DNA of 64,000 nucleotides from contig OZ316897.1 in NCBI GenBank assembly GCA_973895155.1, positions 22,171,455 through 22,235,454 on the forward strand, read 5' to 3'. The translations under genes and the position numbers were made by a program. The notes below the pieces were generated by a model. It had not been told where the DNA came from. It worked only from the letters and a program-made list of their open reading frames with translations, and made no database searches. Of this stretch, positions 3,661 through 55,679 are shown in pieces. The DNA is from Marsupella aquatica (taxonomy: Eukaryota > Plantae > Marchantiophyta). Position 1 is the first letter of the stretch, and every line of letters starts with the position of its first letter.

Positions 3661-6600
3661 TGTGGGATGGCTCAGTGTCAGCTAGTGTAGAGAAACATGA
3701 CATTCTTTCGTTTAGAAGAGGAAATAGTTAGGGAAAAAGTTTTAGTGCTATCAGAGTAGCTAGGTTTAGGGCACTTAAGTAAGAAGGGAAGCTTAGTAGA
3801 GGTAAGAGGGAATTTAGTTATGCAAAGTTATCTAGGGGTAAGCAAGTTACTATAGGAGGGGCAGGAAACTAGTCCGTCCTTAGTTATAATAGGCGACTAA
3901 GTCGGGACCGAAAAATGACCCGACACCGGACATCTTATTTTTTGGCTGATATTTCTCCCATGGGTGCTGGGAGGTCCCTAGGGAACCCTGAAAAAGTATG
4001 AAGTCAAGTGGGGTCTTAACCTAGGAGTTATAAGTATTTTGGCAAAAATCAAAGTTACCAAATAGCGGGTCCCGGGAAAAATAGCTGATGGGTAAATGTA
4101 GGGGTTCCAAGTTTGGAAGTGGGTTAAGTATGGTCCCCTCTATCCCTAGAAACTTGTGGGACAACTTTGTCACACTTGGTTACTTTTTGGGAGCATCTCA
4201 AAGTTGAGAAGAATTTTGGAAGACATAAAGACTTGACCCTCTTTGCCTAATTTTAGAAAAGTTGTTATAGGGTTTTGTTTATATCTTAGTAAACCCGGAC
4301 ATAGTCCTATGTCCATAGAATCAGTGGAGCTACTCAGAAGTCCTTTTGGACTTATGTGTGAGTTTTGGAGGGGGGTCCAAAATCGCCCCAAAATGCTGTT
4401 TTTCCAAAAAAAAAATGTATTTTTTTCTAAGTGTAAACCGCGTGGGCGACGATCACGCGGCGAGCACGAGGCAAGGAGGAGCGAGCACGAGGCAAGGAGG
4501 AGCAAGCACGAGGCTGGTGAGGACGTCAAGCACCGGGAGGCTGTCCAAAGGTGCTGCATGATTACTTGAGGAATCAATTGAGCACAAGGGCGGCTGAATT
4601 GAAGGAAGGGCGGCTGAATTGAAATGGCTGCTGCTGATTGAAGAAGCAAGGGCTGTTGCTGATTGAAGAAGCTATGGCTGCTGAGAAGGAAAAGAGCTAT
4701 GGCTGCAAATTAGGATCGCTGCTGGCTTTGAATTGGGAAGGCTGCTTGCTGCTATGACAGCTGCACACTAGATTAGAGGTGCTCCTACTAATCAGGCACG
4801 AGATGCTCATGAGAATTGGCTGGCTGCTGCCTTGATGCTGCTGAATTGAATGATGCTGCTGCTAGCTGCGAAATTGCAAAGGTGGGCAGCTACGAAATTG
4901 AGAAGAGAGACCTGCTTGACTGAGAAGGAATCAAGCTATGGTTGCTGCTGCTGTGCTTCAAATCTGCTGTTGTTGTGCTGTAAATGCGCTGATGTGACTG
5001 TGCTGCTAGCTGCGAAATTGACTGTGCTGCTAGCTGCGAAATTGACTGTGTTGCTAGCGGCAAAATTGAAGAGGTGGGCTAGCTGCGAAATTGACTAGGC
5101 TGGCTGTGAGCTATGGTGGCTGTGAAATTGAGGGGCTGGCGGCTGATCAGCTGGACTGCTGCACAAGAAAGAATCCAATAGAGAATGCTGTGGTTTTAGA
5201 TTGAATTCACGAGAGAGAAATGGCTGCAAACATTGCTGTCCTTACAATTTCTTCATAAGAAACATGAGTATAATGAGAGTGCTCTCCCCTCATGACACGT
5301 GGAATCCCCATAAGGGGCATGTAAGGTAAGTGTAATCGGGCCGCCGCTTACACCCGCTTTACACCAAAAACAGGCCTTGGGAGAATGGGCATAACTTTGG
5401 CTAGAGGTATCCGTTGGGGCCCAAATTTTTTTGTGCTGAGTTAGGGGAAGATAAGGCACCCCCTGGTGAAGGTGGAACCCCAGAAAAGTAATCACTCAAA
5501 TATATTTTTAACCGAGGCCACGAGGGAGTCCCGACAACTTGCAAACCAAAGTCGGCATAGGGGAATGAATACCAGATTTAGGGGCTGACCTTTCTTGCAC
5601 CCATACCACTTGAGTTAGGCTCTAGAGAAGGGTACTTACCTTTGGCCAAAGGTGTAAGGCCATCAAGTTAAGAAAAGTAAATATAGGGGGTAGTTTACTT
5701 AGGGTAGTAAAGGGGTTACAAGTAAAATAAGGCCAACTTTGACTAGGCACAACTTGAGACTCACTCACTCTTTTTGCGAGCTTTCAAGTGGGTTGGTAAG
5801 CTGGTGAGGAGGACCATAAGTGGGAGTAGGTTTGGAAGTCAAAGCATACCACTCATGTGTGGCATATTCCAGGGCTTGGAAGGAGGCAAAATAGCAAGTA
5901 GTAGGGTGGGCTATGAACTATAGAGTTGGACTTTGTGTGTTAGGAGGACTTGGGGGAGGTATAGTTGGACCCCAGGTCAAGCTTGGTGTGATGTGGAAGG
6001 AGATAGTATATAAGGAGGAAGTTTTCATTTGTTAGGGACCGGGAGTCTCATCTCTTAAGTGAAATCTCTACCTTGCCAAGGTAGGGCTAAGCTTGAGAAA
6101 GGAGAGGTGGTCCATGCTTAGTGTGGAGAATGTGTAGTGAACTTTTGTTGTAAAGGTGATGCAATAAAAGGAGACTTACCAATCTTCATTGTGACCATTA
6201 AGTGTGAGTGCATTTGAAGTATATGAGAGCAAGAGAAGAGTCCATGCTATGGTATAATCTTGGTCTAAGCTTGAAGGGGATGTGCTAGTACAAAACCAAG
6301 GCCAAGGAGGCAAGGTTAAGGTATAGCATTACTTTGAGACTTAGAGAGGATTATAGCTTGAGGGTGGAAAGTACTTTGCTTGGTGTGTGGTGTTAACAAG
6401 AAGTAAGAACAAGAGGAAGAGTCCTTAGATAGAGGAGCCTTCTCTAGGGCTCAAAGGGGATGTGTGGACCCAAACCAAGGCCAGGGGGGCAAGGTTGAGG
6501 GGTAACACTACTTTGAGGGTCTTGAGGAGACTTAAGCTTGAAGAGGAAAGTACTTTGGGTTCTTGGGTGTTTGTGTGAGAATCTACTCTAAGGTGACAGC

Positions 6601-6849
6601 TTGGAGCGGAGATCCCCCTTGCTGATCCTTGGAGTAGAGGAGAGGGGAAGGGGTGAGTACAAAAGTAGTCAAGGGGACTACCTCTCTAGAAGTGGAGAGT
6701 TGAAACTACTTATGTATGGAGTGATTGGACATTGTAAGCACACTTCAGAAGTTTTGTCAATCCTTTGTGACCCTGGTATGACATGGAGCAGGTATTAGGT
6801 AGTCTTTTGGGGAGAAAAGCCGCTTAAGCTCCTTGGCAAGTGTTTGACA
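3661..6849 (+). repeat. 3' LTR of gypsy copy 1 (~3.2 kb), with internal 24-bp repeats (~4997-5070) and a ~180-bp duplication (~6230-6580)
   Basis: TGT...ACA ends directly after the PPT; the right boundary is inferred because the 5' LTR and TSD are outside the window. Confidence 0.7.
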
Positions 6850-10360: not shown

Positions 10361-10385
10361 ATCACCCTATTCATTAAAACTGGAA
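10361..10385 (+). repeat. Left TIR of element X
   Basis: 23/25 match to the reverse complement of 28384-28408. Confidence 0.88.
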
Positions 10386-11073
10386 TTTCTCTAGTCCAAA
10401 AGTTGACGTTTAAATCTATTATTTTACACCCCAAAATTCTATAACTTTGTCCCCAAAATCATACATTTTCGTGGCCAAATGTACACTTTTTAAAGTCTAA
10501 ATTTACAATTGTAATGCTCAAATTATTAAATAACTAAGTTATTAATTATAAATATTATTAATTAAAATATAAACATATACAAATATAGAATAAGACAATA
10601 TAAGTTTGACAATACAATAAATTCAAATGATAACATTAAAAATGACACACTCTAACCAAGGGTCATGAACACGGAACTCCAGGAAAACAAGTGATGTATT
10701 ATAAAATTATAAAACCTATTTTTACAGGGTCGAGATCACATTGACCCCTATATAGGGTCCAGATGGTTCTGACCGGTTGTTGAATGCATATCTGTAAAAA
10801 TCTATATGATGACCATCTCGACCCAAATGGAGGGTTCACATAATTTTGACCCGTTGTTGAATGTATATCTTTAACTTACTATTCTTTCTGTACAGGGTTA
10901 AGACCCGAATAGACTAGCCTTTTTATGAGTATATATCTATAAGTAAAACCCTATTTCTTCAGTAGAGGGTCAAGAACATTTAGACCCAAATGGATGTTAC
11001 GGTAAGCTTCACGCTTTCCTACAAACATATACCCCTAACTAATAATCAGTGTTTGGTGTAGGGTCGAGATCAT

Positions 11074-12333: not shown

Positions 12334-12339
12334 AATAAT

Positions 12340-19176: not shown

Positions 19177-19260
19177 TTAATCTGTTACTGCTAGTTCAGT
19201 TGGTTTATTTTTGCTAGTCACTTTACCTCAAGATCATCTCGAGGTACAACAGCTTCCTAT

Positions 19261-23400: not shown

Positions 23401-24340
23401 ATGGGGGGTTGATTTCATTGGTCCCTTTACTCCCATTACACGGAGGGGGAGGAAGCGCTATATCATATTGGCCACGGACTATGCCACCAAGTGGGTGGAG
23501 GCCAGGGCAACAGCAAAGGATGATGCCAACACCACTGCACGGTTCTTGTACGAGCAGATTTTCACACGGTTTGGGCCACCCTTGGAGCTTGTGAGTGACA
23601 GGGGTACTCACTTTCTCAATCATACGATTGAGCGTTTGACGGAGAACTACTTGATCTCACATAGGAAAACCACTCCGTACCATCCACGAGCCAATGGGCT
23701 CACAGAGAGAGCAAATGGGATCATGGGCAAGATCCTTAATAAGACGGTATCAGCTCACAAGACAGATTGGGATTTGAAGTTGCTGGCTGCTACGTACGCC
23801 TACAACCTGGCTCACAAGACCACCACTGGCCACAGCCCCTACTTCCTTGTGTTTGGTCAACACTCTCTTGTGCCGGTGGAATTTGAGGTTCCCACCATTC
23901 GAATCTTAACACGAGAAAGGGAAGGGGAAGAAAGTAGTGTAGCTGCACGGATCCAACAGTTGGAGCAACTTACAGAGGTACGAGAGGAGGCTTTGACGAG
24001 CACGGAGCAACAGCAAGGCAAACAGAAGTTACACTACGATTCCCATCTCCGCCGTGTGTCCATTGAGGAGGGAGATTTGGTGCTCCTCTATGACAGTCGT
24101 TTCATGCATTTCCCGGGGAAGCTACATACACGTTGGATGGGGCCCTACATTGTCGATGCAGTCTACTCCAATGGGTCAGTTCAGCTCAAGACGCTGGAAG
24201 GGCAACTACTCAACACATGGATTAATCAAGAACGCCTGAAGAAGTACTACACGGAGGAGGAGTATGGTGCTCGCGGGGGCGCTTCGCAATTAAGAGAGGA
24301 GCTATGTGACGGGGTCCCCGTCTCGAAAGGTCATCATTAG
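20481..24340 (+). pseudogene. pol: pol of gypsy copy 2 (frameshifting deletion at ~21563, TAA at 21839)
   Basis: ORFs 20115-21602 (3' part), 21599-21841 and 21905-24340 are collinear with copy 1 Pol. Confidence 0.92.
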
Positions 24341-27018
24341 GAGTTATTGGCAAGATGCATGTAAATAAATAAGCCAATATACATAATAGTTTTTCAATTT
24401 TTTTTAATTTCTTAAAAGTTAATCATCCCGGTGTGTGTTCATGTTGCTCTGGAGGGCCGGAGCTATTTGAACCCGGGAGGAACTATTTTTTTAATTGACC
24501 TTTTGCTCTCTTGGGTCTTGTCGTTGTGGGAGAAGAAAATTAGGCATCTTAAGGGGATACCACTCATTAATATTTGGAGACCCCGGCAGTTTTTCTTGGC
24601 CCCGGTATAATATGGCAGAGGAGCCCACGAGCCGTGGGGCGCGAGACGGAGGGTCGCCCTGCGAGTAGGCGGAGCCCCGAAAGGGTCTTCCAGGGCGTAA
24701 GCGAGGGGCAGCCGGGAAGGAGGAGCCCACGAGCCATGGGGCGCGAGACGGAGGGTCGCCCCGCGAGTAGGCGGAGCCCCGAAAGGGTATTCCGGGGCGC
24801 AAGCGAGGGGCAGCCGGGAAGGAGGAGCCCGCGAGCCGTGGGGCGCGAGATGGAGGGTCACCCCGCGAGTAGGCGGAGCCCCGAAAGGGTCTTCCGGGGC
24901 GTAAGCGAGGGGCAGCCGGGGAGGAGGAGCCCGCGAGCCGTGGGGCGCGAGACGGAGGGTCGCCCCGCGAGTAGGCGGAGCCCCGAAAGGGTCTGCCGGG
25001 GCGTAAGTGAGGTGGCAGCCGCATGGAAGTTGACTATGGGTAACACGGGGAGGATTGGGAATTCCCTACCCTTTGTTTTTTTTCTTTGGTTTTTTTTTGT
25101 TTCTTTGCTTCCTTCTCCGCGCGTGCAACTCCTTTCTTGGCCGAAGCACTCTGCCCTCATTTCCGAAAGCAATTTCCCCAAAGTCGGAAGCTCTCTACCA
25201 GCTCTTACACTTATTTTCGAAGCTCTTTCTCATGGTCAATTGTTGGGGCTTGTGGGCATGATTCTTCCGGGCATTAGCGGCAGCAGCACGGAGTGGCTTC
25301 TGAGGGAATTGAGGGTAATTGATTGATCGGGATACGGGGGCCGTTTCGGGCCAGGGGATTGACATTGCTACGGGTGACGGGATTTGGTGATTGAGGATTT
25401 GATTTCTGGATGCATGGATGCTGGATCAACCGGAGTTTAGTGCGGCACGCGTTCGGAGATACAAGGCTGCTTACCGTGACTACATTGAGACATTGATTGC
25501 AAGAGCTTAGAGAAGAAGCTCAGGGAGGTACATAAATCGTTACGAGAAGCTCAGGTCAACACGGGGATCCCGGGGATGCCACCCCGATCTGTCACCCCTG
25601 GGACTCCCATGGCCACCGGGCAAGTTTTACCGTTGGAGTTGTGGTCCAGTGAAGAGGCGGCCTTATGGAAGGACACCATTGGTGACGGGTACATTAAGGC
25701 GTGGCAAGCCTTGGCCAATTTGAGGAAGCAGGGGAGCACTAGCACAAGGAGTACCCCGGTGAAGAAGAAGAGGAGTGAAGTGGCACTCACTCCAGTGGAG
25801 AGTGATGAGGAGGCCCACTCACGGGGCTCAAGCCAAGGCACCGTGAGTGAAGAGGAGGAGGATTAGAGTGGTCGTACGGACGTGGTTGTACGGCCCCTTG
25901 ACTTTTCAACTTTTTTGTGAGGGGTCACTCACGGGCTTGTTGGAAAGAGCTCGCGGAGCTGATTCCAACAAGAGGCGGCGCTCCTCAAACGGAGCCAGGA
26001 TGAGCAGGTTAGGGCCCGACGAAGTTGGGTTTATGGGATACTAAAACGGCCATAACTTGGTCCTCCGATGTCCGTTTCAAGAGCGGTTGAGTGATTCATG
26101 ATCAGGGGGAGCAAGGCTACCCAGGGGTGAGCTCAGAGGTGAAATCATAGTGACACCTAGTTTTGGCAATTGTGGGGTCCCTTGCATTTTCACGGTTCAC
26201 GGAGCGACGTTGGGGCGCCGTCGAAGGCACCGTCGGCCCCATTTTTAGTTTAGGGTTTTAGGAGCATGTGTGTGCCGCATGCTTTAGGATTAGGGATTCC
26301 TCATGGACGGTTTTAGCGGCGCCGCTAGGTAGCCGCCACCTTTGTGACCCCGTGAGGGGGCTTTGGTGTGTTTGTTTCTAGTATTTAGGGGGAGAGCCCC
26401 GGAGTAGTGAGGGGGGAACTCAGCGTAGTGCTTTGATGCTTTTGAGTAGCTTTTGTGAGTAGCGCACCGATTAGGTGAAGTTCAAGCCAGAGTAGTGAGG
26501 TGGAGAACGTAGCACTTGTCCTAGGGAGGCAGGAGTTGGGCAGACGGCAGGAGGCCGGATTGCCCTTGCATGTGTTACGGGAAACACCAAGAGATATGGA
26601 TTTGGCTTGAGGTTCCAATATTTTGTGTGTCACTTGTTGTTGCTTGTGTTGTTTGTTTTCCTCCCCTAGTGCATGTGGTCGGTTTCGTTATGGAAACATT
26701 TGCCCTTGTCACTAGTGTTCAAACCTTATTGTAAACGTTTGTATGCTTGCCCATGAGAGGGGGGTGGTGACAGCACTCACCCGATGGGCATGAGTTGTAG
26801 ATGGTAGGACCAGTCCCTTGGACTTGATCAAAAACGGAGAGACCAGTCGGTAGACTTGATCAAAAAGTACACTTCTGGGAGTGGAATCAAACATACTCAT
26901 CCTTAGGTATGAAAATCCTTCAAATAGCGTCCCTCCACGACCCCGTAATACGATACCAACGGTTTAAGCGAAGAAAAGTACGATTTGCACGTATTAATCG
27001 TTGGATAGGCAAGTGATA
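24305..27018 (+). repeat. 3' LTR of gypsy copy 2 (2714 bp) with an internally deleted LTR-ORF remnant (~25434-25866)
   Basis: Homologous to 38884-43223; MPPRSVTPGTPMATGQVLPLEL... is shared with the 617-aa ORF. Confidence 0.88.
24619..25010 (+). repeat. 102-bp GC-rich tandem repeat (~3.9 copies) in the LTR
   Basis: AGGAGCCC starts at 24619, 24721, 24823 and 24925. Confidence 0.92.
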
Positions 27019-27022
27019 ATAG

Positions 27023-27688
27023 TTGGCATTGACATATGAGTTTTGGCCAAAAACCAACCACGGAACTGGTTACAAGGTGAATAGTACAGGAACCTCTGAA
27101 CCATTGGGGGAACCTAGTAGTAGTACACAGAATCCAGAAATGGTGGAGCTTCAGAATGAGTACCTTGAAGAGATGGAGGATCAAACTGCACCATTTGTTG
27201 GCACTCGACACGAGCAAGAACTTGCCCGTTGGATTCCTCTCCAGGACATTCAAGAGGGCCACTTTGTATTTCTTCGTCCAGAGGATGAATGGGAAAAGAA
27301 GAATGGCAAAGAACTTTTTTGGTTGGTGAGAGCTTTGGGTGTTGTGGACCCAAACCATGAAATCCCTTCAGGAGACTTGCAATGCAATAACAATATTTCT
27401 ACTAGTACAAGGTATGCTCCTATGTTCCAAGTGCAATGGTGGAGGCCTAAACATGGTAAACATGATGCACCGGATCATGTGCGATATTCACGTTGCTTTC
27501 AGACCACTAAGACTTGGGAGATGGATCCTGGGTTTGATAGTGTCACTGAACGTTGGCAATTTGCTAATTCTACTATGTATGGATTCAAGTCACGCTCTAG
27601 AGAAGAAAATATAATTGATAGAGGTTTGACCATTCCCAAGAATGTTTTGAAAACACTCAAAACCTACATGGAAGGGATTGTTCATTAA
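27023..27688 (+). pseudogene. 3' part of the element X transposase-like gene
   Basis: FWP...IQEGHFVFLRP...FWLVRA...FQVQWWRP resembles, from memory, the C-terminal domain of DUF7869-type bryophyte proteins; same strand as 19261-20480 and resumes right after the LTR end. Confidence 0.5.
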
Positions 27689-29708: not shown

Positions 29709-32700
29709 TGTGATGCCTAGCCAGGAATCATTCGGCCAGTTAAGTGGGTAAAGCAGGAATGCACCCTAGAAACACCTTAGTATAGGGACAAAACAAGGAA
29801 AATATAAACAATTAGGGGCGACTATGGAACCCAGGCCGAGGCCGGAGGTAAGGACGCTGGGGGTGAAAACTCGATTAGGGTTACGGCACGCTAAGCGTCG
29901 GCGGCTAGGAAGGATCAACGGGAGGAAGGACCGGAAGAGGAGAGGGGTAAGGAGCGCTTGCAGGAGATGGTGGCTCATTTGCGAGCATGAACTAGGCAGA
30001 CGACTACGGGAGGCCAACTACTGTCAGCTGCTTAGGCAAGCACTCGGGGAGAGAGTAGATACCGACGATCGACCTAAGGAGGGTATGAGCAACGTCAATC
30101 AAGCGGCACATTTCTGGGGATGCCTGTTCGAACGGGCAACTGAGTACATCAAGACTTACGAGGACAAAGAATCAGAAAGGGCAGCTCGAGAACGACAAGA
30201 GCTCGCTCGATTGTGGGAGCTGTAGAAGACGGCTTTCTTAGGAGGTGAACTCATCAAGGCCGAGTTCTTGTGGACTCCTACTTCCAATCAGCTCGACGAT
30301 CTTCTGTTTTGTGAAGACAGAATCATCGGCATTCGAGAGGCCATCAAGAACTGCAACGACATACACTGGGAATTGAAGGGTAGCACGGAAGGGTGGACCC
30401 AGGCAACGGTGCTAGGAGAAACCTCCACGGCAGCCGAGATGAAGAGGAAGGGAGCCGTCAACGATGAAGCCACCCCGGCAAAAAGAACGAGGTCGGCGGC
30501 ACCAAAGAAGCCAGCCGAGCAGCAGAGCAGGAGGCAGGGAGAAGCCGAAGAGGAGGAGGTTGATCCCATTAATGCCATTCCAACCATGGATGACACCTGG
30601 AAAGGCTGGGCGACAACCCTACCAGCGGAGGTGCAACTACATTTTGCACGGGAGGAGGATGCATGCTTTACGGCCATGCAGACCAAGAAGTACCAAGGCT
30701 TCATGGCCGGATCCGGCTTAGAGGCCTTTGTAAGATTACCATGGCTGAAGCCGGAGGTACCGGATTCAGACCTATTAGAATTCATGGGGTCATGGGAACC
30801 CGAGACCAATTGCACGAGGATATATGGGAAGGATTTCTATCTTACTCCCAAGGTGATTGCCGAAGTGTTTGGCTTGCCAATAGGCAATAAGACCAAAGTT
30901 GATACCAGGAAGACCTTGCCTGACAAGGAGTTCCGGTCGTTCCCCGGGCCATCAACAAAGAATGGCTTCTTCCGGAACACCTGCACCAACCCGCACATAG
31001 GAGAGATGATCGACTTCTTGCGGGTGACCATGCATTGTAACTTGCCGAGGGCAGAGATCGGCAAGGCACAGGTCTATCTGGCAGAGAGGCCAGACCCAAG
31101 CCGGGACTACAACGGGTACCTCCTCAACCAATTGAAGAAGATCTTAAAGGAGGAGCAGCAGGTAATCGGCATGGGGAGCGTGTCACGGCTTGGCTATCAC
31201 ATGCCGCTATTGTGCCGGTATGCCAGAGGTCAGACCTTTGCCCCAGTACTTCCCCTGCAGGTAAGGGTACCCGAGGAAGCTCCAGCACCGAGGCCGGTAG
31301 CAGAGAAGCCTCAACCACCTGTTAGCCCTACGATTGAGCAGGTGTTTAGGCCAAGGAAGGAAGACTTGCCAATGCAGCAACCAAGCATGCAGAATCTGCT
31401 GAAAATGCTGGAGAAGGAAAAGACGGCACCGGCACCGGCTTCGGCAGCAGCACCAATACAGGACACTGCCCCAGAGGTCAACCTAAGCAGAATCAGGCCA
31501 GAATCCAAGCCGGGTGTTCGAATGTACGTGGGAGTCTCAAGCTCTGAATCTGAGGCAGAATTGCCTGAAGCTCCTACCGGCGAAGAGGAGAGGGAGAAGC
31601 CGGAAGTCCAAGAGGTGGAGGAGGCAGTGGAGGACTGCAGCCATGATAACTCCGGCTATGGGTTGGACCATCACGTTCCAGGAGTAAGGACCTGTGGCCG
31701 GTTTATCCCCACACTTCCAAGGGTAGTTCGAGGGGACCCCAACCAGTAGAGTAGCCCCGAGTCTCCCCCACCAGATGTTGCTCCCCCGAGCTTTGACGGC
31801 ATAAAACAGACGGTGCAGGAATTTCAGGAGCAAATCAGGCAGGAAGAGGAGGTAGCCCTGGCTAGGGAAAAGGATTTTCCAGGAGGAGATTGGCCGGAGG
31901 ACATCAGGCGGCTAGCCAAAAAAGGAAGCAAACCTCTAGCCACGATTGAAGAGATCCACAAGACGGCTTGGGAGCAGAGGCCGCGATGGACGATGCCGAT
32001 CACTTCTACTTACTCCACCTACGCTAAGAATAGAGCCATGGAGTATGGTGAGATATTTGGGGAACTTGCGCTCGGCATCTTTGGGGAGGAGTTGGAGGTA
32101 GGACCCTTTTTCCATAGGGAGCAGTTGGAGAAGCACCAATTAGAAGAAGCGGTGGCTTTAGAGAGAAGCAAGAAGGACGAGGTCATCCGGCGGCTTAGGA
32201 GGATGGAAGCCAAGATTGAAGATCTAAGGGCGGCCAAGAAAGCCCAAGATGAACTGCGGATTAAGCGGCATGAGCTGAACATCATGCAGGGGCAGTTGGA
32301 CACAGCGCAGGCTGATAATCAGATTATCAAGGATAAACTGACTCAGACCCAGGGAGAATTGGCCGACGCAATCAAGGACAGGGAGAAATGGAAGAAGGAG
32401 CTGAGAAACGCAGAGGAGGCCCATATATCAGTCAACAACCGGGTCACGGCGGAGACTCAGAGAAGGGAGAGGGCGCTGAAGGGAGAGCTCGAGGTCATCC
32501 GCAGAGTCCTTGAGCAGAAGGAGGCCGAGTTAGGGAAATCCTATCAAGGGATTATTGCGCTACAGCAGGAGCTTGCGTCCCTGACGGCCAGCTTCAAGGC
32601 CGACCTGCGGGAGAAGGATGCCCAGCTCGACCAGACTTATGCCAAGATGAATAACATGGAGTCTGAGGTCGTAGCGGAGCTCGACAAGGAGCTAAGAGCA

Positions 32701-34322
32701 ACCCAGGAGGAGAGGGCTACCACCAAGAAGGAATTGGAGGAAGCCCACAGGGAATTGGAGGAAGCCAAAAACGAGTTGGAGGAGGCACGTAAGGACCTGC
32801 ATGAGACCCAGGAAGAGTTGGAGGAAATCACGAGGAAGATGGAGAACCTACAGCGGCGGGCCGACAACCAAACTGAGCGGCTGAAGAAACAAGCCGCAGT
32901 ATTTAAATGCTTAGCTGCATCAGGTCCATCTCCCGTTGGGGCAAACCAGTTACCAGGGGTGGTAATTGCCGAAGGACCAGCCGTGACACACGGCCCGGTG
33001 CCGGACATTGGCGGCAAAGGGAAGGAACCGGCTGTGGAGATAGTGAAGAAGAAGAAGCGGAAACCTTCGGGGCCCGGAGGTTATTCGACCCCTCAAGCCG
33101 TACTCAAACCGGCACCAACCTCCGGCATGAACACGGCAATAGATCCCGCTATCACCAAAGGTGGGGATGGCGCGGCCCAAGCCGAACTACTCAGTAATGA
33201 GGCCGGTATCCCAGATCCGCCTCTTGAGCAGGCCGGGGAGACCGTAGCCGAGAATGATTCCCGAGCCGATGCCGATGCCGATGGTGGACCCAGTCAGGCC
33301 GATGGAGAGTTGACTCAGTCACGGGTAGGTAATCTATCAGAGAACGAACCTACGGCAGTGGCTGAGGAGGAAGCGTTGGGGTCGTCCATTGAGGATCCAC
33401 CACCGGTGTCGTGACGGTGCAAGGGCGCCGTTCCTTTTAGGAAGGGCGGACGTGGAGGTAGGAGGCGTGAGTGGGCAGGGCGGGCGCTGATCTCCAAGTT
33501 TAGGATTAGGATCAGGACCAGGAGGCGGCCCTGACACTTAGCTTAGTGGAATTGCGGTTCCACTGGCAGGAGCAACACTTGTGCTCCTACCTTGTTGTAC
33601 ATAGGTAGATTCGGGCAGGTAGATTACTGTTAGGTAGATTAGGCTTACGCTGCAAAGAATTAGGCGGATCCACTACCAGGATAAGTACCTGGGCAGTGGG
33701 GAGCTCAGCGCCTCTTCTTTAGCAAGTTTTTAGTTTGCACCAGCCGGGCTGGGATCAAGTAGTAAGAGAAGCTCTCGGTTAGTCATACCGTGACCTTGTG
33801 TATATTCATGTTTCCTCATGCCTAAGAGCTGAATAGAGTTGGCCTCACGGCTTAGTTCGCAGAGCTTGTGTATGAGATGTACTGTTTGTATGGCAAGTGC
33901 ATGGTATGACTCAGTCAGAAGGAGTCATTTTGCTATTTGTGTGTCGCATTAACTTGTGTGAAGAGTGCCCACATCAACCAGAAGGGAGGAAAGTAAGCAA
34001 GGGAGTGAGAGTTGGATGTGTCGAGCTGAAAGAGGTCTTAGCGGCTTAACCAAGCCTATTGGGGATCATTCCGGCGGCGGAATCCAAACATACCTAACCA
34101 GAAGGAGAGGAAGACAAGGGAAGGCCTAGATTAGGCCGGCTACGTATCTCATGACCCGATGAAGGATCTGTCCAGTATATGTGTGTAAAAGGCTAATAGT
34201 AATAGTAGAAGGAGGTTAGCAACGTCCCATGCCGCTAAGCCGCGGAAATGGCCTCGCCAAGCCGCGGGAATCGGCTTGAGCTGGGGGTTTCTTGGGTTTA
34301 GGGAGCCATGGGACGCACCACA
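29709..34322 (+). mobile_element. Apparent solo LTR (4614 bp) of a long-LTR gypsy family, containing a ~1195-codon frame
   Basis: Ends TGTGATGC...GCACCACA (7/8 inverted repeat); 5-bp TSD GATAT at 29704-29708 and 34323-34327; no gag/pol. Confidence 0.82.
29824..33414 (+). pseudogene. LTR-encoded protein: PMD/Transposase_32-like segment + long coiled coil; one frame with two TAG stops (30223, 31747)
   Basis: ORFs 29824-30225, 30268-31749 and 31813-33414 share one frame and the gaps between them are open; LLEFMGSW...IYGKDFYLTPKVIAEVFGLP resembles plant gypsy accessory ORFs; ELEEA heptad repeats. Confidence 0.72.
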
Positions 34323-36393: not shown

Positions 36394-37635
36394 CCTTGAA
36401 TATAATTTATGGAATGAATGCGCACTGGATCAAAGGAATGCAACAGAGGAATGTAGAATGCGATAAATTTATCGCAATCCTCTCGGATCAGGACATTGAC
36501 ACCAAATGACAAGTCAACCTTACATGGATGATACTCGACTAGAATGGTAGTTCCGATAAATTTATCAGGTTCTCTGGAGAAAGAGTCAAGTCTCTTGGGA
36601 GGAATGCAAGACTTGATAGGAGTTCAGTATTCACTCTGAGTGAGGTGTTGGTCGCTCCGGCGAAAATAAACTTTTTATGGGCAACCCGCTCCTCTTTATA
36701 TAGGGGATGCTCTAACCATGGTAACTTTCCCCCTTAACCATGGTTACTTTCCGCCTTAACCCGGGTTAGTGCGTGGTCGACCCTCGATTACGTGGTTTTG
36801 GACCAAGTTACTCATAGTTCGGACTTTTTCACAGAGCGAATGTAAAACTCAATGCACGTATCGCTCCCTGCATTCCCGCGGCGATGCAATGTAGGCAACT
36901 CATGTTTTTTTGATTTTTTGGCAGTTTTATCGGAGATTGCATTGCCTTAGAAAAAAAATGGAATTGGGCTAAACGAGAAGTGTGTCACACTTCTCGGTCA
37001 GTCCAAAATCGTGTTATTATCTTTCCTAGTAATTTGGTCTCTATCATTTTTACTAGGCTCATTTGACTTCTCTATAGACTGAAATCCAATGAGAACATTG
37101 GCATTTTTCTCTCCTTCAGGTACCTCGCAAATAGATGCATCACTCTCTGTTGAGCTACCATCCTCCATAGATCTCCTCGACGCATTTAGAGGGGCACTAA
37201 AAACGTGACTAAAACTATTCCCTTCTACAGCTCCTTCTAAACATTCAGACACAACTTGTGCTATGATATCGGATTCTCTATCTCCTTCCTGATCTTCGTC
37301 CTCTGATCCACTCGACTCATCTGAAAACACAATTGGACTCCGTGGCTCTCTATACATAACCTGAATGCCACTAAGACCTCTCCTCGACACTTGGAGCCTG
37401 GAACCAATCACAGTCCGCCCTGGAGAACTTGGAGAATCTAGAACTCTCAACGGTGAACTATTCACACGTGCAATCCCAACGACTCCGCAAGCTGCAGGAA
37501 AATTGAGCACTTGTTGACCACGATTCCCACGGACCATTCGGGAAAGGGCCGAGTCTGGACTTTGTAATCCGATTCTGTGACGGGGTCCCTCCACGGTAAG
37601 TCACCATTAGTGTCACGGCGAGAGTTCCCTCACGT

Positions 37636-38907
37636 TTGGGCCCGGAGAGAGCAGCAGTGTTTTTATGTAAGACAGGTCCCTACTTGCTTGTGAAGGGAGT
37701 ACTTCACAAGTACGGCATGGATGGCCGTCTTCGTCGTTGTTTGGAGGAAGCTGAGATACGTATAGTCATGGCAGCATTACATGAGGAAGAAGTTGGTGGC
37801 CACTTTGCACGGGAGACCACCGCAAGGAAAATACTAGATGCTGGATATTGGTGGCCAACTCTCTTTTGAGATGTACACCGGTACATCCAGCGATGTGATC
37901 CGTGCCAGCGTCAAGGCAAACCAGGGCCCTCCTCACGCCACCCATTGGTGCCCATACTTCCTCTTGCACCCTTTGAGAAGTGGGGGGTTGATTTCATTGG
38001 CCCCTTCGCTCCCATCACTAGAAGAGGGGGGAAGCGCTACATCATTCTTGCAACGGACTATGCCACAAAGTGGGTGGAGGCCCGAGCCACTGCCAAGGAT
38101 GATGCCAACACCACGGCACGTTTTTTGTACGAGCAGATTTTTACACGATTTGGTCCCCCATTGGAGCTGGTGAGTGACAGGGGTACTCACTTTCTCAATC
38201 ATACGATTGAACGTCTGACGGAGAACTACCTGATCTCACATAGGAAGACCACTCCGTACCATCCTCGAGCCAATGGGCTCACTGAGAGAGCAAACGGGAT
38301 CATGGGCAAGATTCTTAACAAGACGGTATCAGCTCACAAGACAGATTGGGATTTGAAGTTGTTGGCTGCTACTTACGCCTACAACCTGGCTCACAAGACT
38401 ACCACGGGCCACAGCCCCTATTTCCTTGTGTTTGGACAACACTCTCTTGTGCCGGTGGAATTTGAAGTGCCCACCATTTGGATCCTAACACGGGAAAGGG
38501 AAGGGGAAGAAAGAAGTATAGCTGCACGGATCCAACAGTTGGAGCAACTCACTGAGACACGAGAAGAGGCTTTGACCCGTACAAAGCAGGAGCAAAGCAA
38601 ACGGAAGTCACATTACGATTCCCGTCTCCGTCGTGTGTCCATTGAGGAGGGAGATTTGGTACTCCTCTACGACAGTCGTTTCATGCATTTCCCCGGGAAG
38701 TTGCATACACGTTGGATGGGGCCCTACATAGTAGACGCCGTCTACTCCAACGGCTCAGTTCAACTCAAGACGTTGGAGGGGCAACTACTCAACACATGGA
38801 TCAATCAAGAACGCCTAAAGAAATACTACATGGAGGAAGAGTATGGTGCTCGCGGGGGCGCTTCGCAATTAAGAGAGGAGCTATGTGACGGGGTCCCGCC
38901 ACGGTAA
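37636..38907 (+). pseudogene. pol: Integrase region of pol, copy 3 (TGA at 37867)
   Basis: Nearly identical in protein sequence to copy 2 integrase; zinc finger, DDE and GPY motifs. Confidence 0.93.
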
Positions 38908-41900
38908 GTCACCATTAGTGTCACCAGCAAGACACCTGTAAATGAATAAGCCCATAGACGCGAGTTTTTTTTAATGTTCTTTAAGTTTGTAAAGTTTTTT
39001 AAAGCATCTCGGGATAGTCGGAGACCCCAACAGTTTTGTCTAGACCCGGGTTAATTATGGGGCAAAACCTGGGGGGTATAAAATCGTGACTTTTCGGGAA
39101 GGTAAGGAAGTCCGGGAAATAAGCATTTTTAATTTTTTTGGTAACACCCCTTCTAAAGCAACACTCAGGCAGAGCTGGGGGAGTATGGGGGGTTTAATTA
39201 AACCCCCATTAAATCCTTCCGCGAGTGGGCAGCGAGAGAGCCGGGCCTTAAAGAGTATGAGGGGATCCATAAGGGGCAGCCCTGGAGCTGCCACATGGAA
39301 TCCCCATAAGGGGCACGAAGCCAGCCAAGGCGAAGAAAAAAAAGAACTCCGTGGGGGGAAGCTGCCGCAAGTTAGGGGGGTTTTTTTTAAATCCCTCCCA
39401 AGGAGGGCAGCCGGGCCGTGGCAGAGCCGCGAGTGACCGGGAAGGAGGGCCGCGAGCTCCGCGAGGGCGGGAGCTGCTGCGAGCTGCTGCGAGTAAGGAG
39501 TAGGGGGGTTTTAAAATAAATCCCTCCTAAGGAGGTCCGTGAGCTGCCAAGAGGGCAAGGGCTGCCAGGAGCGCGAGCCCGCACGGATGTGAGCTGCCGC
39601 GCAAGCGGGGGTGTCCACGAGTGAGCCAGGGGGCAAGGAGCCAGCCGGCAGCAGGATTGGGGGATATTAGGGCAGCCGCGTGGCAGGGGGCGAGCGAGCC
39701 CTGCATAGGTCCGTGAGCCACCAGGGAGCTACTAGGTGCGAGGTGCGAGGACGCGAGCTGCGGGAGGAAGAAATTAAAACCCCCTTAAGGGGCTCCGCGA
39801 GTGACTGGGCAGGGGGGCCGCAAGCCCTACATAGGGCCGCGAGCCCGCACGGACGCGAGCTGCGAGGAAGGGGGACTCCCGCGAGTCGGGACAAAGGAGG
39901 GCCCGGGGCGCAAGGCGAAAAGCTGCTCCCAGGAAGGGTTTCGTTGTTTTTTTTTCTCTCCCCTCTTTTCTCCTTTTCACACGACCCTTCTCTTGCCGAA
40001 AGCAAACTCGAGTTTCTCTCTCTTATTGCCGAAAGCTTCCTCCTTATGTTACAATTATTTGAGCTCTCTCTCTAATTCTTCTCAAGGCTCACTCAAGGGG
40101 GATTGCGGGGACTATTCGGGCATTAACGACAGCAACATGGAGTGACGACGGAGGGGATTGAGAGAAATAAATTAATCTGGCTACGGGGGCTGTTTCGGGC
40201 CAGGGAATTGACATTGCTACGGGTGACGGGATTTGGTGGTTGAGGATTTGATTTCGGGATGCATGAATGCTAGATCAACCGGAGTTTAGTGTGGCACGCA
40301 TTCGGAGATACAAGGCTGCTTACCGTGACTACGTGGAGACTTTGATTGCAAGGGAGAGAGAAGAGAGAGAAGCTACGATGAGCACGGGATTGGCAGCAAG
40401 TTCCACACCGGTGGGTAGGAGGATTTTTTGTCGAATTTATCCCAAGACCTCCGCCAAGGTGATGGAGGATTGTCGAAATATTTTCCAAGCCACCGGGGTT
40501 ACAGAATTCATGAAGGTAGAGATTACCATCCCTCCGGGGAAGAGCTGGGACATTGAGGCTGGGATGAAGTTACGAACGGAGGGAATCTACTTTGAATGTC
40601 TCAAACGTGTAGTGCCCCATGTGGAGTTGGCTAGGCTGCTATTTTTGGAGAATCAGAAATTCTCATTCACACCTTGGCACATTAGGGGAGAACTCACGTT
40701 GAAGATGGTGGCCACTTGGGTGATTAATCCCACCTCCACCACTGCCATCCCTCTTTCCGCTGTCAAGGATGTTGAGTATAAGGGATTCCTGGCCAAGGTT
40801 CATCAACGGGTCCTTGGCAACGTGCAATCCGGGGTGGTGAATGAAGAGCATTTTGTGGTAGCTATGGACATCAAGAACCACCCAGCCCATGTGTACGGAT
40901 GGTGGTACTACGGGTTGAAGAAGCTGTTGGCCGCTGATCCCGGGAGTGTGAAACCAGGTGGGGCTGTACATTTGATGGGGTCATTTGTATTGGCTAGGGC
41001 AGAAGGGTTGATTGGTTCCCCGGGACAGGAAGACACAGGATCATCTCTCACCACGGAGATCCGGAGTATTGCCACTACCATTTTAGGGAAGCTCACGGAG
41101 GAATCATCGTCGGCTGGTGGGGATGACGATAGAGGAGAAGAAAACCAGGATGAGGACTACACGTTGGAGTGGCTTGAATCACTCGTGGGAGATCCAAAAA
41201 AGCCCCTGGTCTACAACATTCCGGATGTTTACCTGGTAGAGCTACAGGATTTCAGAGAGGGAGTCCAAGAGGGACTCAAGCTAGTCCACGCATTGAGAGA
41301 TTCTCTCAAGCACGCCACAGCCAGAGTAGAGACGTTAGAGCAGAGTACCCTGTCTCTGAAGGAGGTGATCAAGGCCAAGGAGGGGACCATTCATGAGAAG
41401 GTTAAGCTTCTCCAAGCAGCTCACGTAGAGATCTCCAACTTAAAGGGAGCCTTGTCCACCAAGGCCAAGGAAGCAGAAGAGGTGGGAGCGTTGAGACAAG
41501 CATTGGCCAAAGAGAAGCAGAATTCTGGAGAAGTGGTGGAGTGGAGAAACCAGGTGGGAGCACTACGGAGTCAGGTGGCCGCCTTTGAGACACGAGCAAA
41601 GAGGAGTGAGGCCTTGAGTCTGGGGAAACGGAAGAGCCCCGGCACACCTAGCTCCACACTTTCCCCGGATTTGATCTCCCAGGCTATTGAGATGGTGGTG
41701 AAGGAGGTTAGTGGGAAGTATGGACCCTTGTTGGATGGAGCCAAGAAGAGTCAGGAGAAGAGCAAGGGCTTGGAGAAGAAGCTCCGAGAGGTACGGAAAT
41801 CGTTACGGGAGGCTCAGGTCAGTACGGGGATGCCACCCAGGTCTGTCACCCCCGGGACTCCCATGGCCACAGGGCAAGTTCTACCGTTGGAGTTGCGGTC

Positions 41901-43223
41901 CGGAGAAGAGGCTACCCTATGGAAGGACACCATTGGTGAGGGGTACATCAAGGCGTGGCAAGCCTTGGCCACTTTGAGGAAGCAAGGGAGCGGCAGCACG
42001 GAGAGTACCCCGGTAAAGAAGAAGAAAAGTGAGGTGGCACTCACTCCCGTGAGTGATGAAGAGGAGGCCCACTCACGGGGCACAAGCCAGGGCACCGAGA
42101 GTGAAGAAGAGGAGGAGTAGATAGTCGTACGGATGTGGTTGTACGGCCTCTGGATTTCCAAATTTTTTGGATGGGGTCACTCACGGGCTTGTTGGAAAGA
42201 GCTCGCGGAGCTGATTCCAACAAGAGGCGGCGCTCCTCAAACGGAGCCAGGATGAGCAAGTTATGGCCCGACGAAATTGTGTTTTCGCGATACGGAAACG
42301 ACCATAACTCAGGCGTCCGATGTCCGTTGCGAGTGCGGCTAAGTGATTCGGGATCAGGAGGAGAAGGGATATCCAAGGGTGAGCTCAAAAGTACAATTGA
42401 TAGGGCACCTAGTTTCGGCCATTGTGGGGTGCCTTGCACTTTCAGGGTTCACGGAGTACAGTTGGGGCACCGTCAAAGGCACCGTCGGCCCCTTGTTTAG
42501 GGTTTAGGGTTTTAGCAGCATGTGTGTGCCGCATGCCTTTTTAGTTTAGGGATTTCTTAGTGCAGGGTTTTAGCGGCGCCGCTAGGGTAGCCCCCATCGT
42601 TGTAACCCCATGAGGGGTGCTTTGGTGTGGTTTTTTGGTATTTAGGGGGAGAGCCCCGGAGTAGTGAGGGGGGGAACTCAGTCTAGTGTTTGTTTGAGGG
42701 AAGTTGTCTAGCAGCCCGAAGAGGGAATCCAGCCAGAGTAGTGAGGTGACAGCATAGTATTGTCCTAGGGAGGCAGGAGTTGGGCAGATGGCAGGAGGCC
42801 GGGTGGTCCTTGCAATGTATACGATTGTTCACCAAAAGATATCGATTTGGTTGGATTCCTGAATTTTGGGTGTGGTGTTCTCTCTCTTGTTGCACGGTTG
42901 TGTTCTTCCCCTAGCATGAATGTTTAGAGAAACTCGTATGGTTTGGTCGACCCTGTGAGTGGGAGAGTGGTGACAACACTTTGCCAAAGACTAGGAGGAG
43001 TAGGAATAGGACAGTCCACGGGACTTGATCAAAAGCGGAGTGCATGTATAGTCGATAGACTTGATCAAAAAATACATTTCCGGGAGCGAAAACGAATCTA
43101 CTCATCCTTAGTGAGAAGTTACTCTGTATAGCGTCCCTCCACGTCCCCGTCATACGATACAAACGATTATTAGTAGAAACTCAACGGTATTTGATGTGTT
43201 AATCGTTTGATAAGCAAGTAACA
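38884..43223 (+). repeat. 3' LTR of copy 3 (4340 bp)
   Basis: PPT AAGAGAGGAG at 38871-38880; start matches the 5' LTR stub; CA end followed by the TSD. Confidence 0.93.
40267..42120 (+). CDS. LTR-encoded 617-aa protein (globular N-half, acidic linker, coiled coil, basic NLS-like and acidic tail), function unknown
   Basis: Uninterrupted ATG-TAG ORF entirely within the LTR; both ends conserved in copy 2. Confidence 0.8.
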   Translation: MLDQPEFSVARIRRYKAAYRDYVETLIAREREEREATMSTGLAASSTPVGRRIFCRIYPKTSAKVMEDCRNIFQATGVTEFMKVEITIPPGKSWDIEAGMKLRTEGIYFECLKRVVPHVELARLLFLENQKFSFTPWHIRGELTLKMVATWVINPTSTTAIPLSAVKDVEYKGFLAKVHQRVLGNVQSGVVNEEHFVVAMDIKNHPAHVYGWWYYGLKKLLAADPGSVKPGGAVHLMGSFVLARAEGLIGSPGQEDTGSSLTTEIRSIATTILGKLTEESSSAGGDDDRGEENQDEDYTLEWLESLVGDPKKPLVYNIPDVYLVELQDFREGVQEGLKLVHALRDSLKHATARVETLEQSTLSLKEVIKAKEGTIHEKVKLLQAAHVEISNLKGALSTKAKEAEEVGALRQALAKEKQNSGEVVEWRNQVGALRSQVAAFETRAKRSEALSLGKRKSPGTPSSTLSPDLISQAIEMVVKEVSGKYGPLLDGAKKSQEKSKGLEKKLREVRKSLREAQVSTGMPPRSVTPGTPMATGQVLPLELRSGEEATLWKDTIGEGYIKAWQALATLRKQGSGSTESTPVKKKKSEVALTPVSDEEEAHSRGTSQGTESEEEEE

Positions 43224-44284
43224 GATTCCCTCGCTTGCTTGCACATCCAGTCTAGGCAATGCAAAGACCAATCGCCGTATCGGTCTTTGTATTTCTACCT
43301 CCTGGTCCTCACCTAGAGACTAAAAGATCCGTTGTTGAACGTGTGTTGAATGTGGCGACTTGAATGCTGAGTGCGATACGCGTATCGGTCGCCGGATACC
43401 CTCTCCATAACCCAGGATGGATGGCCTGAAGCGACGTCTTGGACCTAAACTTGGAATTGTAATTTTCTCACTTCTTGGTGATGGAACGCTCAAGAGACGA
43501 CGCTTCTCAGGTTTACTAGACGCCTGACTAGACGACACATAGTAAGAACTGGGCTCAGGACCAGAACTTGCATCAGAATCCGAATCAACGTCAAATTTTT
43601 TTGGCACTATCTGCTGTGAGAGAGGTAGAGCTTTAAGTATGCAACTTGGCAAGCAACGAGCGACAACATTAGGAGAGGATTCAACTGAACTTGAAGGTGA
43701 ATCTGTGTCTGATTGAGACATGGCTATCTGAGACACTATGGGGCTTTGCATTCCTCCCTCAATCAGGGAAAACGAATGGCTCAACGGACAAAATGTTGCT
43801 CCAAGAACACAACTCCCAAAACTCTACTCTGGATAATGACGCCAAAAACTTATCGGCGGTGGCCCTTTTATAGTGTCTGTTGAGGGGTTGGCCCACATGG
43901 CCACTTTTGATTGGCCGTCTCGCTAAACGACAAAATAGCAGAGAAGGGTATATTCACTAGTACATATTTAGCTGATTTCCAATGCTCAATTTTTGCAAAC
44001 AATCGGCGTCCGATTCTTTTAGAATCGGAAATTCCCATTATCACAAAATGGCAATATGCCATACTCTCGGCTTCGGATATCTTCATTTCTGATGTAATTA
44101 ACAACGGAACCTTTCCGATGCGGTAAAAACGGATCATATCCGTTACAAACTACATCGGATCCCCTAACAAAAAATTTGATTGATATGTCCGATGTTTTTT
44201 GAACCGCAAATGATGTGCGTTTCAATATTGATCGGAAAAGTTCCGTAGTTGATAAGAACGGATATTATATTCGATTGTGGTAAA

Positions 44285-54677: not shown

Positions 54678-55679
54678 TCAAGCCAAACCGACCATCTTTA
54701 ATGAGTCGGTCCACAAGTGATCCTCTTTTTCCTCGTCGTAAGCATGCTCTGCATACCCAGGATCGCTGATCGCACTCCCCTCCTTCACCGGCAGGCTAAC
54801 CTGCACATCCTCCAAATACTTGCCTCCTTTCCCCTCCCACTCCTTCCCCACAGCCGCCCAAACGGTCGTCGCAGCCCCCTGCTCCGTGCTCTTCATAACA
54901 GCATTAATCTCGGGCGAGTTCAAGGCTTCCTTCAAGTCCTCTGCCAAATAGTTCATCAGCTGCGTCCGGATGCCCCCCGGGTGCAGGCTCGTCGCGTGGA
55001 GCCCCTGCTGCCCGAAATGCCGATCGATGTGATTGGCCATATAGATGTTTGCCGTCTTGCCTTGCCCATATGCGAGCATGGGATTGTAGTCTCCTGTTTT
55101 GAAATTGTAGTCCTCGAAGCGGATGCCACTAAAGCGATGGCCGGATGATGCGACTGTGACGACGCGCGAGTTGAACTCCGGCGTAGAAGAAGCGAGCAGA
55201 CTGGGCTTGAGGAGGTTGAACAGCAGGAAGTGGCCGAGATGATTGGTGGCGAATTGAGTTTCGAATCCGTCCACAGTTGTGGTCCCTGGGGCGGGGATGG
55301 CCATCACGCCTGCGTTGCACACGAGGACGTTGATCGGTTTCTCGGCGGTCTTGGAGAGGAACTCCGCTGCTGCAGCTCGAACGCTCTCCAGGGAGGAGAG
55401 GTCCATGGACAGGAGCTCGACGCGGCCGGGCTCGAGTAAGTCCGCTAGTGCCGTCTTGCCCTTCTCAATGTCTCGTACCCCGCAGTACACCGTCGCTCCT
55501 GTGGTCGCGATGGCACGAGCAGTCTCGACTCCAATTCCTGACGAGCATCCGGTTATTAGGAAGGTTTTGTTCTTTAATTTGCCTTCCAACCCCTCGTCCT
55601 GAATGATTTGCAGAGCGGTAGGACGGGCGTCGCCTGCTCCGTGAGGATTCACATGGACTGCTGCGTATTTGGATGCCAT
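54678..55679 (-). CDS. Short-chain dehydrogenase/reductase (retinol-DH/WWOX-like), 333 aa, intronless, fungal-like
   Basis: TGCSSGIG (TGxxxGxG), CNAG, FATNHLGHF and YGQGK (YxxxK); ATG at 55679 gives MASKYAAVH... Confidence 0.93.
   Translation of the reverse strand: MASKYAAVHVNPHGAGDARPTALQIIQDEGLEGKLKNKTFLITGCSSGIGVETARAIATTGATVYCGVRDIEKGKTALADLLEPGRVELLSMDLSSLESVRAAAAEFLSKTAEKPINVLVCNAGVMAIPAPGTTTVDGFETQFATNHLGHFLLFNLLKPSLLASSTPEFNSRVVTVASSGHRFSGIRFEDYNFKTGDYNPMLAYGQGKTANIYMANHIDRHFGQQGLHATSLHPGGIRTQLMNYLAEDLKEALNSPEINAVMKSTEQGAATTVWAAVGKEWEGKGGKYLEDVQVSLPVKEGSAISDPGYAEHAYDEEKEDHLWTDSLKMVGLA

Follow-up and report, generated by a model that had tools for sequence, protein, structure and literature searches.

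The liverwort Marsupella aquatica contains a Ty3/gypsy retrotransposon whose long terminal repeat (LTR) very likely encloses an accessory gene. The element lies at 37576-43223 on the + strand of a 64,000-nucleotide stretch of contig OZ316897.1 (positions 22,171,455 to 22,235,454, assembly GCA_973895155.1), referred to below as the window, and is flanked by copies of its target site, GATTC (37571-37575 and 43224-43228). The gene, an open reading frame (ORF) of 617 amino acids (aa), is placed inside the 4.3-kb LTR, a region that as a rule carries control sequences alone, because the polypurine tract (PPT) directly follows pol, and given this location it seems likely, by analogy with other systems, that the product is a regulator. 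On balance the best explanation is an internally deleted, Athila-like Ty3/gypsy copy with an accessory gene within its LTR, coding for what is probably a nuclear DNA-binding factor that keeps the element transcribed.

Boundaries of the element and its reading frame

The element and its flanks comprise the following features:

37571..37575, + strand: left target-site duplication (TSD), GATTC; the empty-site joint 37570->43224 has 5 shared letters and is found in 4/4 runs
37576..37616, + strand: 5' LTR stub, 41 bp, 40/41 identical to 38884-38924
37617..38907, + strand: pol remnant (RNase H-integrase linker and integrase), with an in-frame stop at 37867-37869
38848..38883, + strand: conserved pre-LTR motif and PPT, 10 purines at 38871-38880, then CTA, directly before TGTGA at 38884
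38884..43223, + strand: 3' LTR, 4,340 bp, TGT...ACA, ending ...AACA at 43223
39012..40081, + strand: GC-rich, fast-changing region, with a pyrimidine-rich stretch at its end, ahead of the ORF leader
39077..39083, + strand: TATAAAA, the single TATA-type box found in the LTR, ~1.2 kb upstream of the ORF; candidate promoter
40267..42120, + strand: 617-aa ORF without a stop; N-terminal globular domain, acidic linker, coiled coil, C-terminal helix, KKKK and acidic tail
42188..42224, + strand: predicted RNA hairpin, z -2.08, with 2/200 shuffles folding equally well
43224..43228, + strand: right TSD, GATTC, from the sequence and run contigs

The stub joins pol through 2 bp of microhomology, just 5' of the integrase zinc finger, and the remainder of the 5' LTR, the primer-binding site (PBS), gag, protease, reverse transcriptase (RT) and RNase H (RH) are deleted in this copy. 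As the stub shows, the 5' and 3' LTRs shared their first base. Plus-strand synthesis starts from the PPT and its product is copied to the 5' end, making the two LTRs alike (PMC7197481; here and below the literature is cited from the available part of each text); at insertion the ORF should therefore have been present in both. The natural stop of pol lies 24 bp inside the 3' LTR, so that pol reads through the PPT, which overlaps its end, and the ORF starts 1.4 kb inside the LTR.

The boundaries were compared with contigs of four public runs, representing at most four samples from two studies, of which the best match may be the source material. In every run a contig links 37570 directly with 43224 across five shared letters, which represents the empty site. 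In run X4 ten contigs diverge exactly at 43223, each continuing into sequence unlike that of the others (agreement 0.49), and in run X1 one contig extends into upstream pol at 37614; no PBS was readable behind 43223 in the run contigs. The flanks of the target site (37300-37575 and 43224-43700) are a multi-copy repeat, with the empty-site contigs at high depth, and the element is therefore nested. A first-pass annotation of the window had fixed the LTR limits by the PPT, the 5' stub and the TSD, and had described an uninterrupted sense ORF wholly within the LTR, a pol carrying a stop and a homologous remnant of the ORF in a second copy (copy 2, below). Each of these descriptions is borne out, the limits being further supported by the empty site and by the ten contigs ending at 43223.

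Two loose ends in the run contigs were also seen. The first six bases of the X4 loose-end line equal those after the LTR of copy 2, which may be chance, and in X1 a loose end at 43128 shows an LTR start like that of the second family in the window, with CTA before it, directly abutting the LTR end of the studied family. The joint may reflect a very short LTR, a recombined one or a motif common to both families. In X2 and X4 contig depth appeared ~1.5 to 3x higher across the ORF than across pol. Two LTRs per element would give such a difference, but contig depth cannot rank parts and the figure was left aside.

When the LTR was shuffled 1,000 times by mononucleotide, the longest stop-free frame reached at most 421 codons (mean 158). 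The protein encoded by the ORF has a globular domain at approximately aa 57-241, a predicted coiled coil of ~190 residues at approximately aa 326-519 and a basic KKKK at aa 584, a motif that suggests nuclear import. No transmembrane segment is found in it, the highest 19-residue hydropathy being 1.09. Compared with copy 2, the ratio of nonsynonymous to synonymous rates (dN/dS) is 0.24 over the 144 shared codons (Fisher p ~1e-6), with a value of 0.05 for integrase/pol (418 codons), and the noncoding 3' part of the LTR is 77% identical with 20 gaps. Among 12 listed of the 64 indels in the run contigs, only one falls in the ORF, where it keeps the frame. The dN/dS value indicates purifying selection on the ORF.

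Elsewhere in the LTR, the TATA box has no counterpart in copy 2, and the GC-rich region aligns poorly to that copy, which carries a 102-bp tandem array in the equivalent region. The predicted hairpin sits right after the ORF stop in a stretch of ~85 bp (42176-42260) that is identical in copies 2 and 3 and is a candidate packaging or processing signal. Just 5' of the hairpin a T-run/G-run resembles the second kind of purine tract described below for the metagenome relatives, with no TG after it.

Related copies, lineage and position of the polypurine tract

Three further LTRs are found in the window:

24305..27018, + strand: 3' LTR of copy 2, of the family of the studied element, with the same PPT and LTR start
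29709..34322, + strand: solo LTR candidate of a second family, 4,614 bp, TSD GATAT, TGTG...CACA
3661..6849, + strand: likely 3' LTR of a sister family, 3.2 kb, PPT directly after pol; right end placed by resemblance only

Copy 2 is without its 5' LTR and gag. The remnant of its ORF consists of codons 1-29 (90% aa identity) and 500-617 (83%), codons 30-499 having been lost at a 7-bp repeat, out of frame. Transposase-like frames at 19195-20480 and 27140-27688 (+), with no Pfam match, flank this copy, which is probably inserted in a DNA transposon. The unit at 29709-34322 is likely a solo LTR. What had been called a 29.7-kb solo LTR is this unit, which begins at position 29.7 kb but has a length of 4,614 bp, with in-frame stops. 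Its long frame (29770-33411) is broken by stops at 30223-30225 and 31747-31749 and has a globular N-terminal part followed by a coiled coil; a T-run/G-run follows the ORF stop in this family, at about 33435, as it does in the studied one, at about 42165. The pol of the sister family (6-3620) shows 69% DNA identity to that of the studied family, and its LTR is without a long ORF. This family may have lost the gene or may depend on it in trans.

A metagenome scan with an integrase alignment gave 84 loci, of which 80 were kept. One of these, L001, is a circular 10.7-kb contig (1-10852, the first 123 bases being the same as the last 123) and holds a whole Athila-like element in the order pol, purine tract with no TG after it, 745-codon ORF, PPT/LTR start, 1-kb LTR, PBS and gag, which is the Athila layout. 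The two purine tracts that flank its ORF are different, making L001 a useful reference for the ancestral layout. The PPT/LTR-start motif lies directly after pol in L004, L005, L006, L007 and L009 and in all three window families, and in each of these five loci (5/5) an ORF of the L001 family begins 0.5-0.7 kb inside the LTR. The ORFs of L004, L006 and L007 are 27-33% identical to that of L001 (E <= 3e-21). L007 runs for 3,568 bp from the LTR start, spanning the whole of a 641-codon ORF, with no further start. Behind the post-pol PPT, L004 and L005 carry as an inverted repeat the LTR end that precedes the PBS, over the first 10 bases in L004 and 12 of the first 13 in L005. The PBS, which we take to be of tRNA-Asp type, lies a few bases after the LTR in L001, L004 and L005 and is deleted in the studied copy. 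A TATA box near the LTR end in L001 and L005, read by eye, suggests that R-U5 is short and U3 long. In L002, L003 and L015 the other kind of tract follows pol, these loci being too short to class. The proposal that a lineage places accessory ORFs inside its LTRs is thereby supported beyond the window, since 5/80 loci share the PPT-after-pol layout and all five have an LTR-internal ORF. The anti-silencing or targeting role suggested along with it would draw on a fold-level resemblance of a homolog to the Transposase_32/ATHILA/PMD group, described below.

A two-block PPT/LTR-start profile, built from the nine sites scored here (three in the window and six in metagenome loci), gave scores of 48-51 at the three window sites against <= 0.9 inside the 4.3-kb LTR. 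With this profile no second PPT/LTR start was detected in the studied LTR, the copy 2 LTR or the solo LTR, nor beyond the post-pol site in L004, L006 and L007 (<= 0.9).

The pol of copy 2 has the Pfam order RVT_1, RT_RNaseH, Integrase_H2C2 and rve, which is that of Ty3/gypsy, and the other marks of such elements, namely a TG...CA LTR, a PPT before the 3' LTR and a TSD, are present. A search for an additional RNase H (aRH) found none in the interval that separates RNase H (aa 213-316) from the integrase zinc finger (aa 419-474), nor any downstream of integrase, the 5' part being missing. The nearest named pol proteins, which point to a liverwort host, belong to Calypogeia fissa (70-72% over RT-RH) and Riccia sorocarpa (46-57%), both liverworts. 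Full-length matches in angiosperms have 42-43% identity and form the outgroup in trees; we take these proteins to be Athila. In a tree of 98 of the 120 pol matches and two window rows, with an alignment to the query of >= 440 aa, the window rows group with C. fissa proteins with a support of 1.0. Across this tree and the locus tree described below, the window pol shares a clade with proteins named as liverwort (100/99) and stands apart from the angiosperm sequences.

The absence of an extra RNase H, the 5-bp TSD and the tRNA-Asp-type PBS of the relatives lead to an assignment as an Athila-like, aRH-less member of the OTA group; judged from these sequence features, the lineage looks like this or like a basal aRH-less Tat (Tat Z1/Z2), such groups having been described (PMC13468544). 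Membership of Phygy, whose elements are short, lack an extra ORF and insert at an NCGN motif (PMC6317226), is at odds with the 5-bp TSD GATTC and the 4.3-kb LTR with its ORF. Membership of Tat (TatI-III, Ogre, Retand) was rejected because aRH is absent from the interval between RNase H and integrase and after integrase.

The encoded protein and competing explanations

A phmmer search of 1.84 billion representative proteins with the 617-aa ORF gave 14 matches at E <= 0.001. They include fragments with 43-62% identity, and among the 10 that were looked up four are C. fissa proteins with 27-30%, which keep the domain order of the ORF. Residues 57-241 of the ORF align with aa 12-199 of one homolog, P0129 (28% identity, E 3e-19). 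The Atlas model of aa 10-205 of P0129 has TM scores of 0.59-0.70 to 8 of the 10 listed clusters, of which four carry PMD (0.65), Transposase_32 (0.68 over 186 residues), ATHILA PF03078 (0.70) or DUF1985 (0.59), and its feature scores with the PMD and DUF1985 sets are 0.89-0.91, all family labels being under the reporting bar. The N-terminal domain is predicted from this model to have a Transposase_32/ATHILA/PMD-type fold. Pfam at E 1 on six homologs gave no PMD, Transposase_32, ATHILA or DUF1985, and the profiles used here were negative against P0084, one Transposase_32-bearing protein. Searches of PDB sequences with the ORF returned coiled-coil noise only, and a metagenome scan with it gave 286 pattern matches and no relative. 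The ORF of the solo LTR has a weak profile match (14.6 bits) to the ORFs of the L001/L004 type, and we infer that the 617-aa ORF, the solo-LTR ORF and the L001/L004-type ORFs all belong to one fold group.

How the gene came to lie in the LTR, and how it would act, may be pictured as follows. The ancestor would most likely have had the order pol, ORF2, PPT and LTR, as in Athila and L001. The LTR-defining PPT would then have come to lie directly behind pol, turning the former 3' internal region, gene included, into the 5' part of U3, and the gene is placed in U3 because it would derive from the interval between pol and PPT once the LTR-defining PPT lay upstream. Its transcript would be a spliced RNA of the 3' LTR, like that of Athila ORF2, or would start at a promoter internal to the LTR, as in the sag gene of mouse mammary tumour virus (MMTV). 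The protein would enter the nucleus, oligomerise through its coiled coil, bind element DNA and counter silencing, by analogy with VANC and MAIN-type proteins. The gene looks like a known Athila-type 3' accessory ORF that became part of the LTR by a shift of the PPT, more than a new capture.

A number of results weigh against this account. The fold call comes from the Atlas model of one homolog (mean pLDDT 0.51), with every family label under the bar; with the whole ORF as query, feature scores reach only 0.80 and recognition is low (2049), the matches at 0.80 being Transposase_28 clusters, which serve as a lead only. Pfam found no family in the ORF at E 0.1, and the 90% protein collection gave no match with the ORF or its alignment as query (7,997 candidates of limited lengths scored). 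The AlphaFold/Foldseek check advised in the first-pass annotation gave poor models, with a pLDDT of 43 and 44 (without and with a 7-row alignment), the second of which had no match in PDB; the first, though poor, has long helices at aa 326-519. There is no detectable sequence homology between the ORF and the L001/L004-type ORFs (hhalign probability 0.1), and profile comparisons with the solo-LTR ORF were negative. The solo-LTR match to the L001/L004 type has an E-value of 0.018 among 16,868 fragments, with four fragments from outside the family scoring higher. The dN/dS of the ORF is five times the integrase value. No full-length copy with two ORF-bearing LTRs was found among the 80 metagenome loci. 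The sister LTR has the same layout without an ORF, and the gene is therefore dispensable in cis or has been lost there. Finally, in a locus tree of 12 of the 80 metagenome loci and 18 hand-picked proteins, the window, L004-L009 and L001-L003 clades form an open fork, so that the tree gives neither a direction of change nor a single origin; the direction of the PPT change is taken from the angiosperm layout in the literature.

The same architecture could also serve another function, with the product a particle-associated or targeting factor, that is, a coiled-coil partner of Gag or integrase aiding nuclear import or site choice. The ~190 residues of predicted coiled coil would suit such a role, an Athila domain has been modelled as a pentamer formed through coiled coils (PMC13547354), import or regulatory roles have been proposed for such ORFs (PMC7264820), and all three LTR families of the window sit among other repeats. 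However, the N-terminal domain of the homolog matches, in its predicted model, the PMD/Transposase_32 group, whose studied members act on chromatin, the basic motif suggests import into the nucleus, and a gene present in solo LTRs would fit a trans-acting chromatin factor better than a part of the particle. We therefore consider this function possible but rather unlikely.

Two other explanations would dispense with a gene that belongs to the LTR. The ORF might be the ordinary internal 3' ORF of a two-tract Athila-like element with a short true LTR, the present copy being an aberrant insertion primed at the first tract. L001 has just such a two-tract layout with an internal ORF, both window families have the T-run/G-run after the ORF stop, and the 5' end of the studied copy is only a 41-bp stub, no copy with two LTRs having been seen. 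Against this, no TG follows the post-ORF tracts, PPT/LTR-start scores inside the LTR do not exceed 0.9, the post-pol motif is of the type that starts the LTR in L001, and the post-pol start in L004 and L005 repeats, in inverted form, the LTR end on the PBS side. In addition, the second family forms a TSD-bounded 4.6-kb unit with an ORF and a third has its PPT after pol. A single aberrant event does not account for these features; aberrant priming is accordingly improbable. The least probable explanation, which we disfavour, is that the ORF is a decaying passenger, a second element or captured gene in a long noncoding LTR, with no role in retrotransposition. Its deletion in copy 2, its broken state in the solo LTR and its absence from the sister LTR (3661-6849) would be expected of a passenger, but a dN/dS of 0.24 would not, given flanking LTR sequence of 77% identity in the two copies, and no TSD or inverted ends are seen around the ORF. 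Moreover, the C. fissa homologs keep its domain order and the relatives have an ORF at the same place. An accessory gene belonging to the LTR, probably with a nuclear regulatory function, is thus retained as the preferred explanation.

Apart from the retrotransposons, a run of antisense frames extends over 7317-16321 (-), beyond the LTR of the first element, and possibly represents a large transposon carrying DNA methylases in a liverwort-like genome. Its Pfam matches are listed here, followed by a separate frame from outside the run:

7317-7967, - strand: N6/N4 DNA-methylase-like ORF, Pfam N6_N4_Mtase E 3.5e-5, under the curated cut-off
11074-12141, - strand: NIF/FCP1-type phosphatase, E 1.7e-17
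13065-14504, - strand: N6/N4 DNA-methylase-like ORF, Pfam N6_N4_Mtase E 1.6e-4, under the curated cut-off
54678-55679, - strand: intron-free 333-aa short-chain dehydrogenase in a G+C-richer patch, adh_short E 8e-22; outside the run

Two other ORFs of the run, 9090-9662 and 15017-16321 (-), have no Pfam match but look ParB-like by eye. The short-chain dehydrogenase is presumably of fungal type and is possibly a transferred gene.

Precedents and implications

The closest parallel is with Athila/Calypso, the non-chromovirus OTA elements, with which the studied element shares the lack of an extra RNase H, a 5-bp TSD and a sense accessory ORF after pol, together with the tRNA-Asp-type PBS of its relatives (L001, L004, L005) and the predicted fold-level resemblance of the homolog to ATHILA and Transposase_32 clusters. 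It differs in that the ORF comes after the PPT, inside the LTR, rather than between pol and PPT, and in that pol reads through the PPT. Unlike the 'env-like' ORF2 of Athila/Calypso, which in Arabidopsis Athila is made from spliced RNA (PMC7197481), the ORF is without a transmembrane segment and without a Pfam match. Diaspora, an env-less element of the Athila lineage in soybean, has a PPT close behind the pol stop, an unusually long LTR and a tRNA-Asp PBS, but no LTR ORF is described in the available text, where the layout is interpreted as loss of an env-like gene (PMC1142308); in this it resembles the ORF-less sister family at 3661-6849.

Accessory ORFs of PMD or Transposase_28 type, often with coiled coils, are also found in Ogre (a PMD ORF upstream of gag), in Retand, Grande and RIRE2 (antisense Transposase_28 ORFs) and as ORF0 in Retrosat2 and RIRE3, and long LTRs are known in Ogre and Retrosat2 (PMC6317226, PMC11963269, PMC3485330). 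The position of these ORFs, however, is either the LTR-gag or the pol-LTR interval, and Tat elements have the extra RNase H that is absent here. MMTV sag/naf offers a likeness in layout, the whole ORF being in U3, with its own U3 promoter, and present in both LTRs (PMC9412291), although it belongs to a vertebrate retrovirus and the protein is unrelated. VANC of VANDAL/MuDR elements and the host PMD proteins MAIN and MAIL1 would share the predicted fold group and the coiled coil (PMC13547354), a likeness of predicted fold, with proteins of DNA transposons or host genes. The VANC anti-silencing factors resemble MAIN (PMC13547354), and PMD proteins counter Polycomb silencing (10.1101/2024.09.27.615353).

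Surveys of plant elements class extra ORFs by position, either 5' of gag or in the interval from pol to the 3' LTR (PMC6317226, PMC7264820), and the available parts of further papers likewise place them outside the LTRs, which reach ~5 kb (PMC12885004, PMC13547354, PMC1142308, PMC7197481, PMC7466625, PMC13468544, PMC11963269, PMC9412291, PMC3485330). Full-text literature searches, covering few subscription papers and no supplements, found no case of a plant ORF inside an LTR. The component parts are of known kinds, and it is their arrangement that seems undescribed. One ORF family is found ahead of the PPT in L001 and within the LTR in L004-L007 and L009. These elements show a way for a gene to pass into the LTR of a retroelement, as happened with sag in MMTV. 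Annotation pipelines with short LTR limits will misread such elements, and gene finders may take LTR ORFs for genes of the host; homologs of the present one include four 'unnamed protein products' of C. fissa.

A gene inside the LTR would be copied into both LTRs and into every solo LTR, and because a solo LTR holds the whole gene it offers a natural test of the function of Athila-type ORF2, a long-open question. More tentatively, and with the balance of probability on the other side, a PPT shift could have put an Athila-type ORF into U3 throughout a widespread gypsy lineage of non-seed plants, in which every LTR would be both a promoter and the source of a trans-acting, PMD-fold anti-silencing factor. 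If this is true, solo LTRs, which are usually taken as dead ends, would be helper genes.

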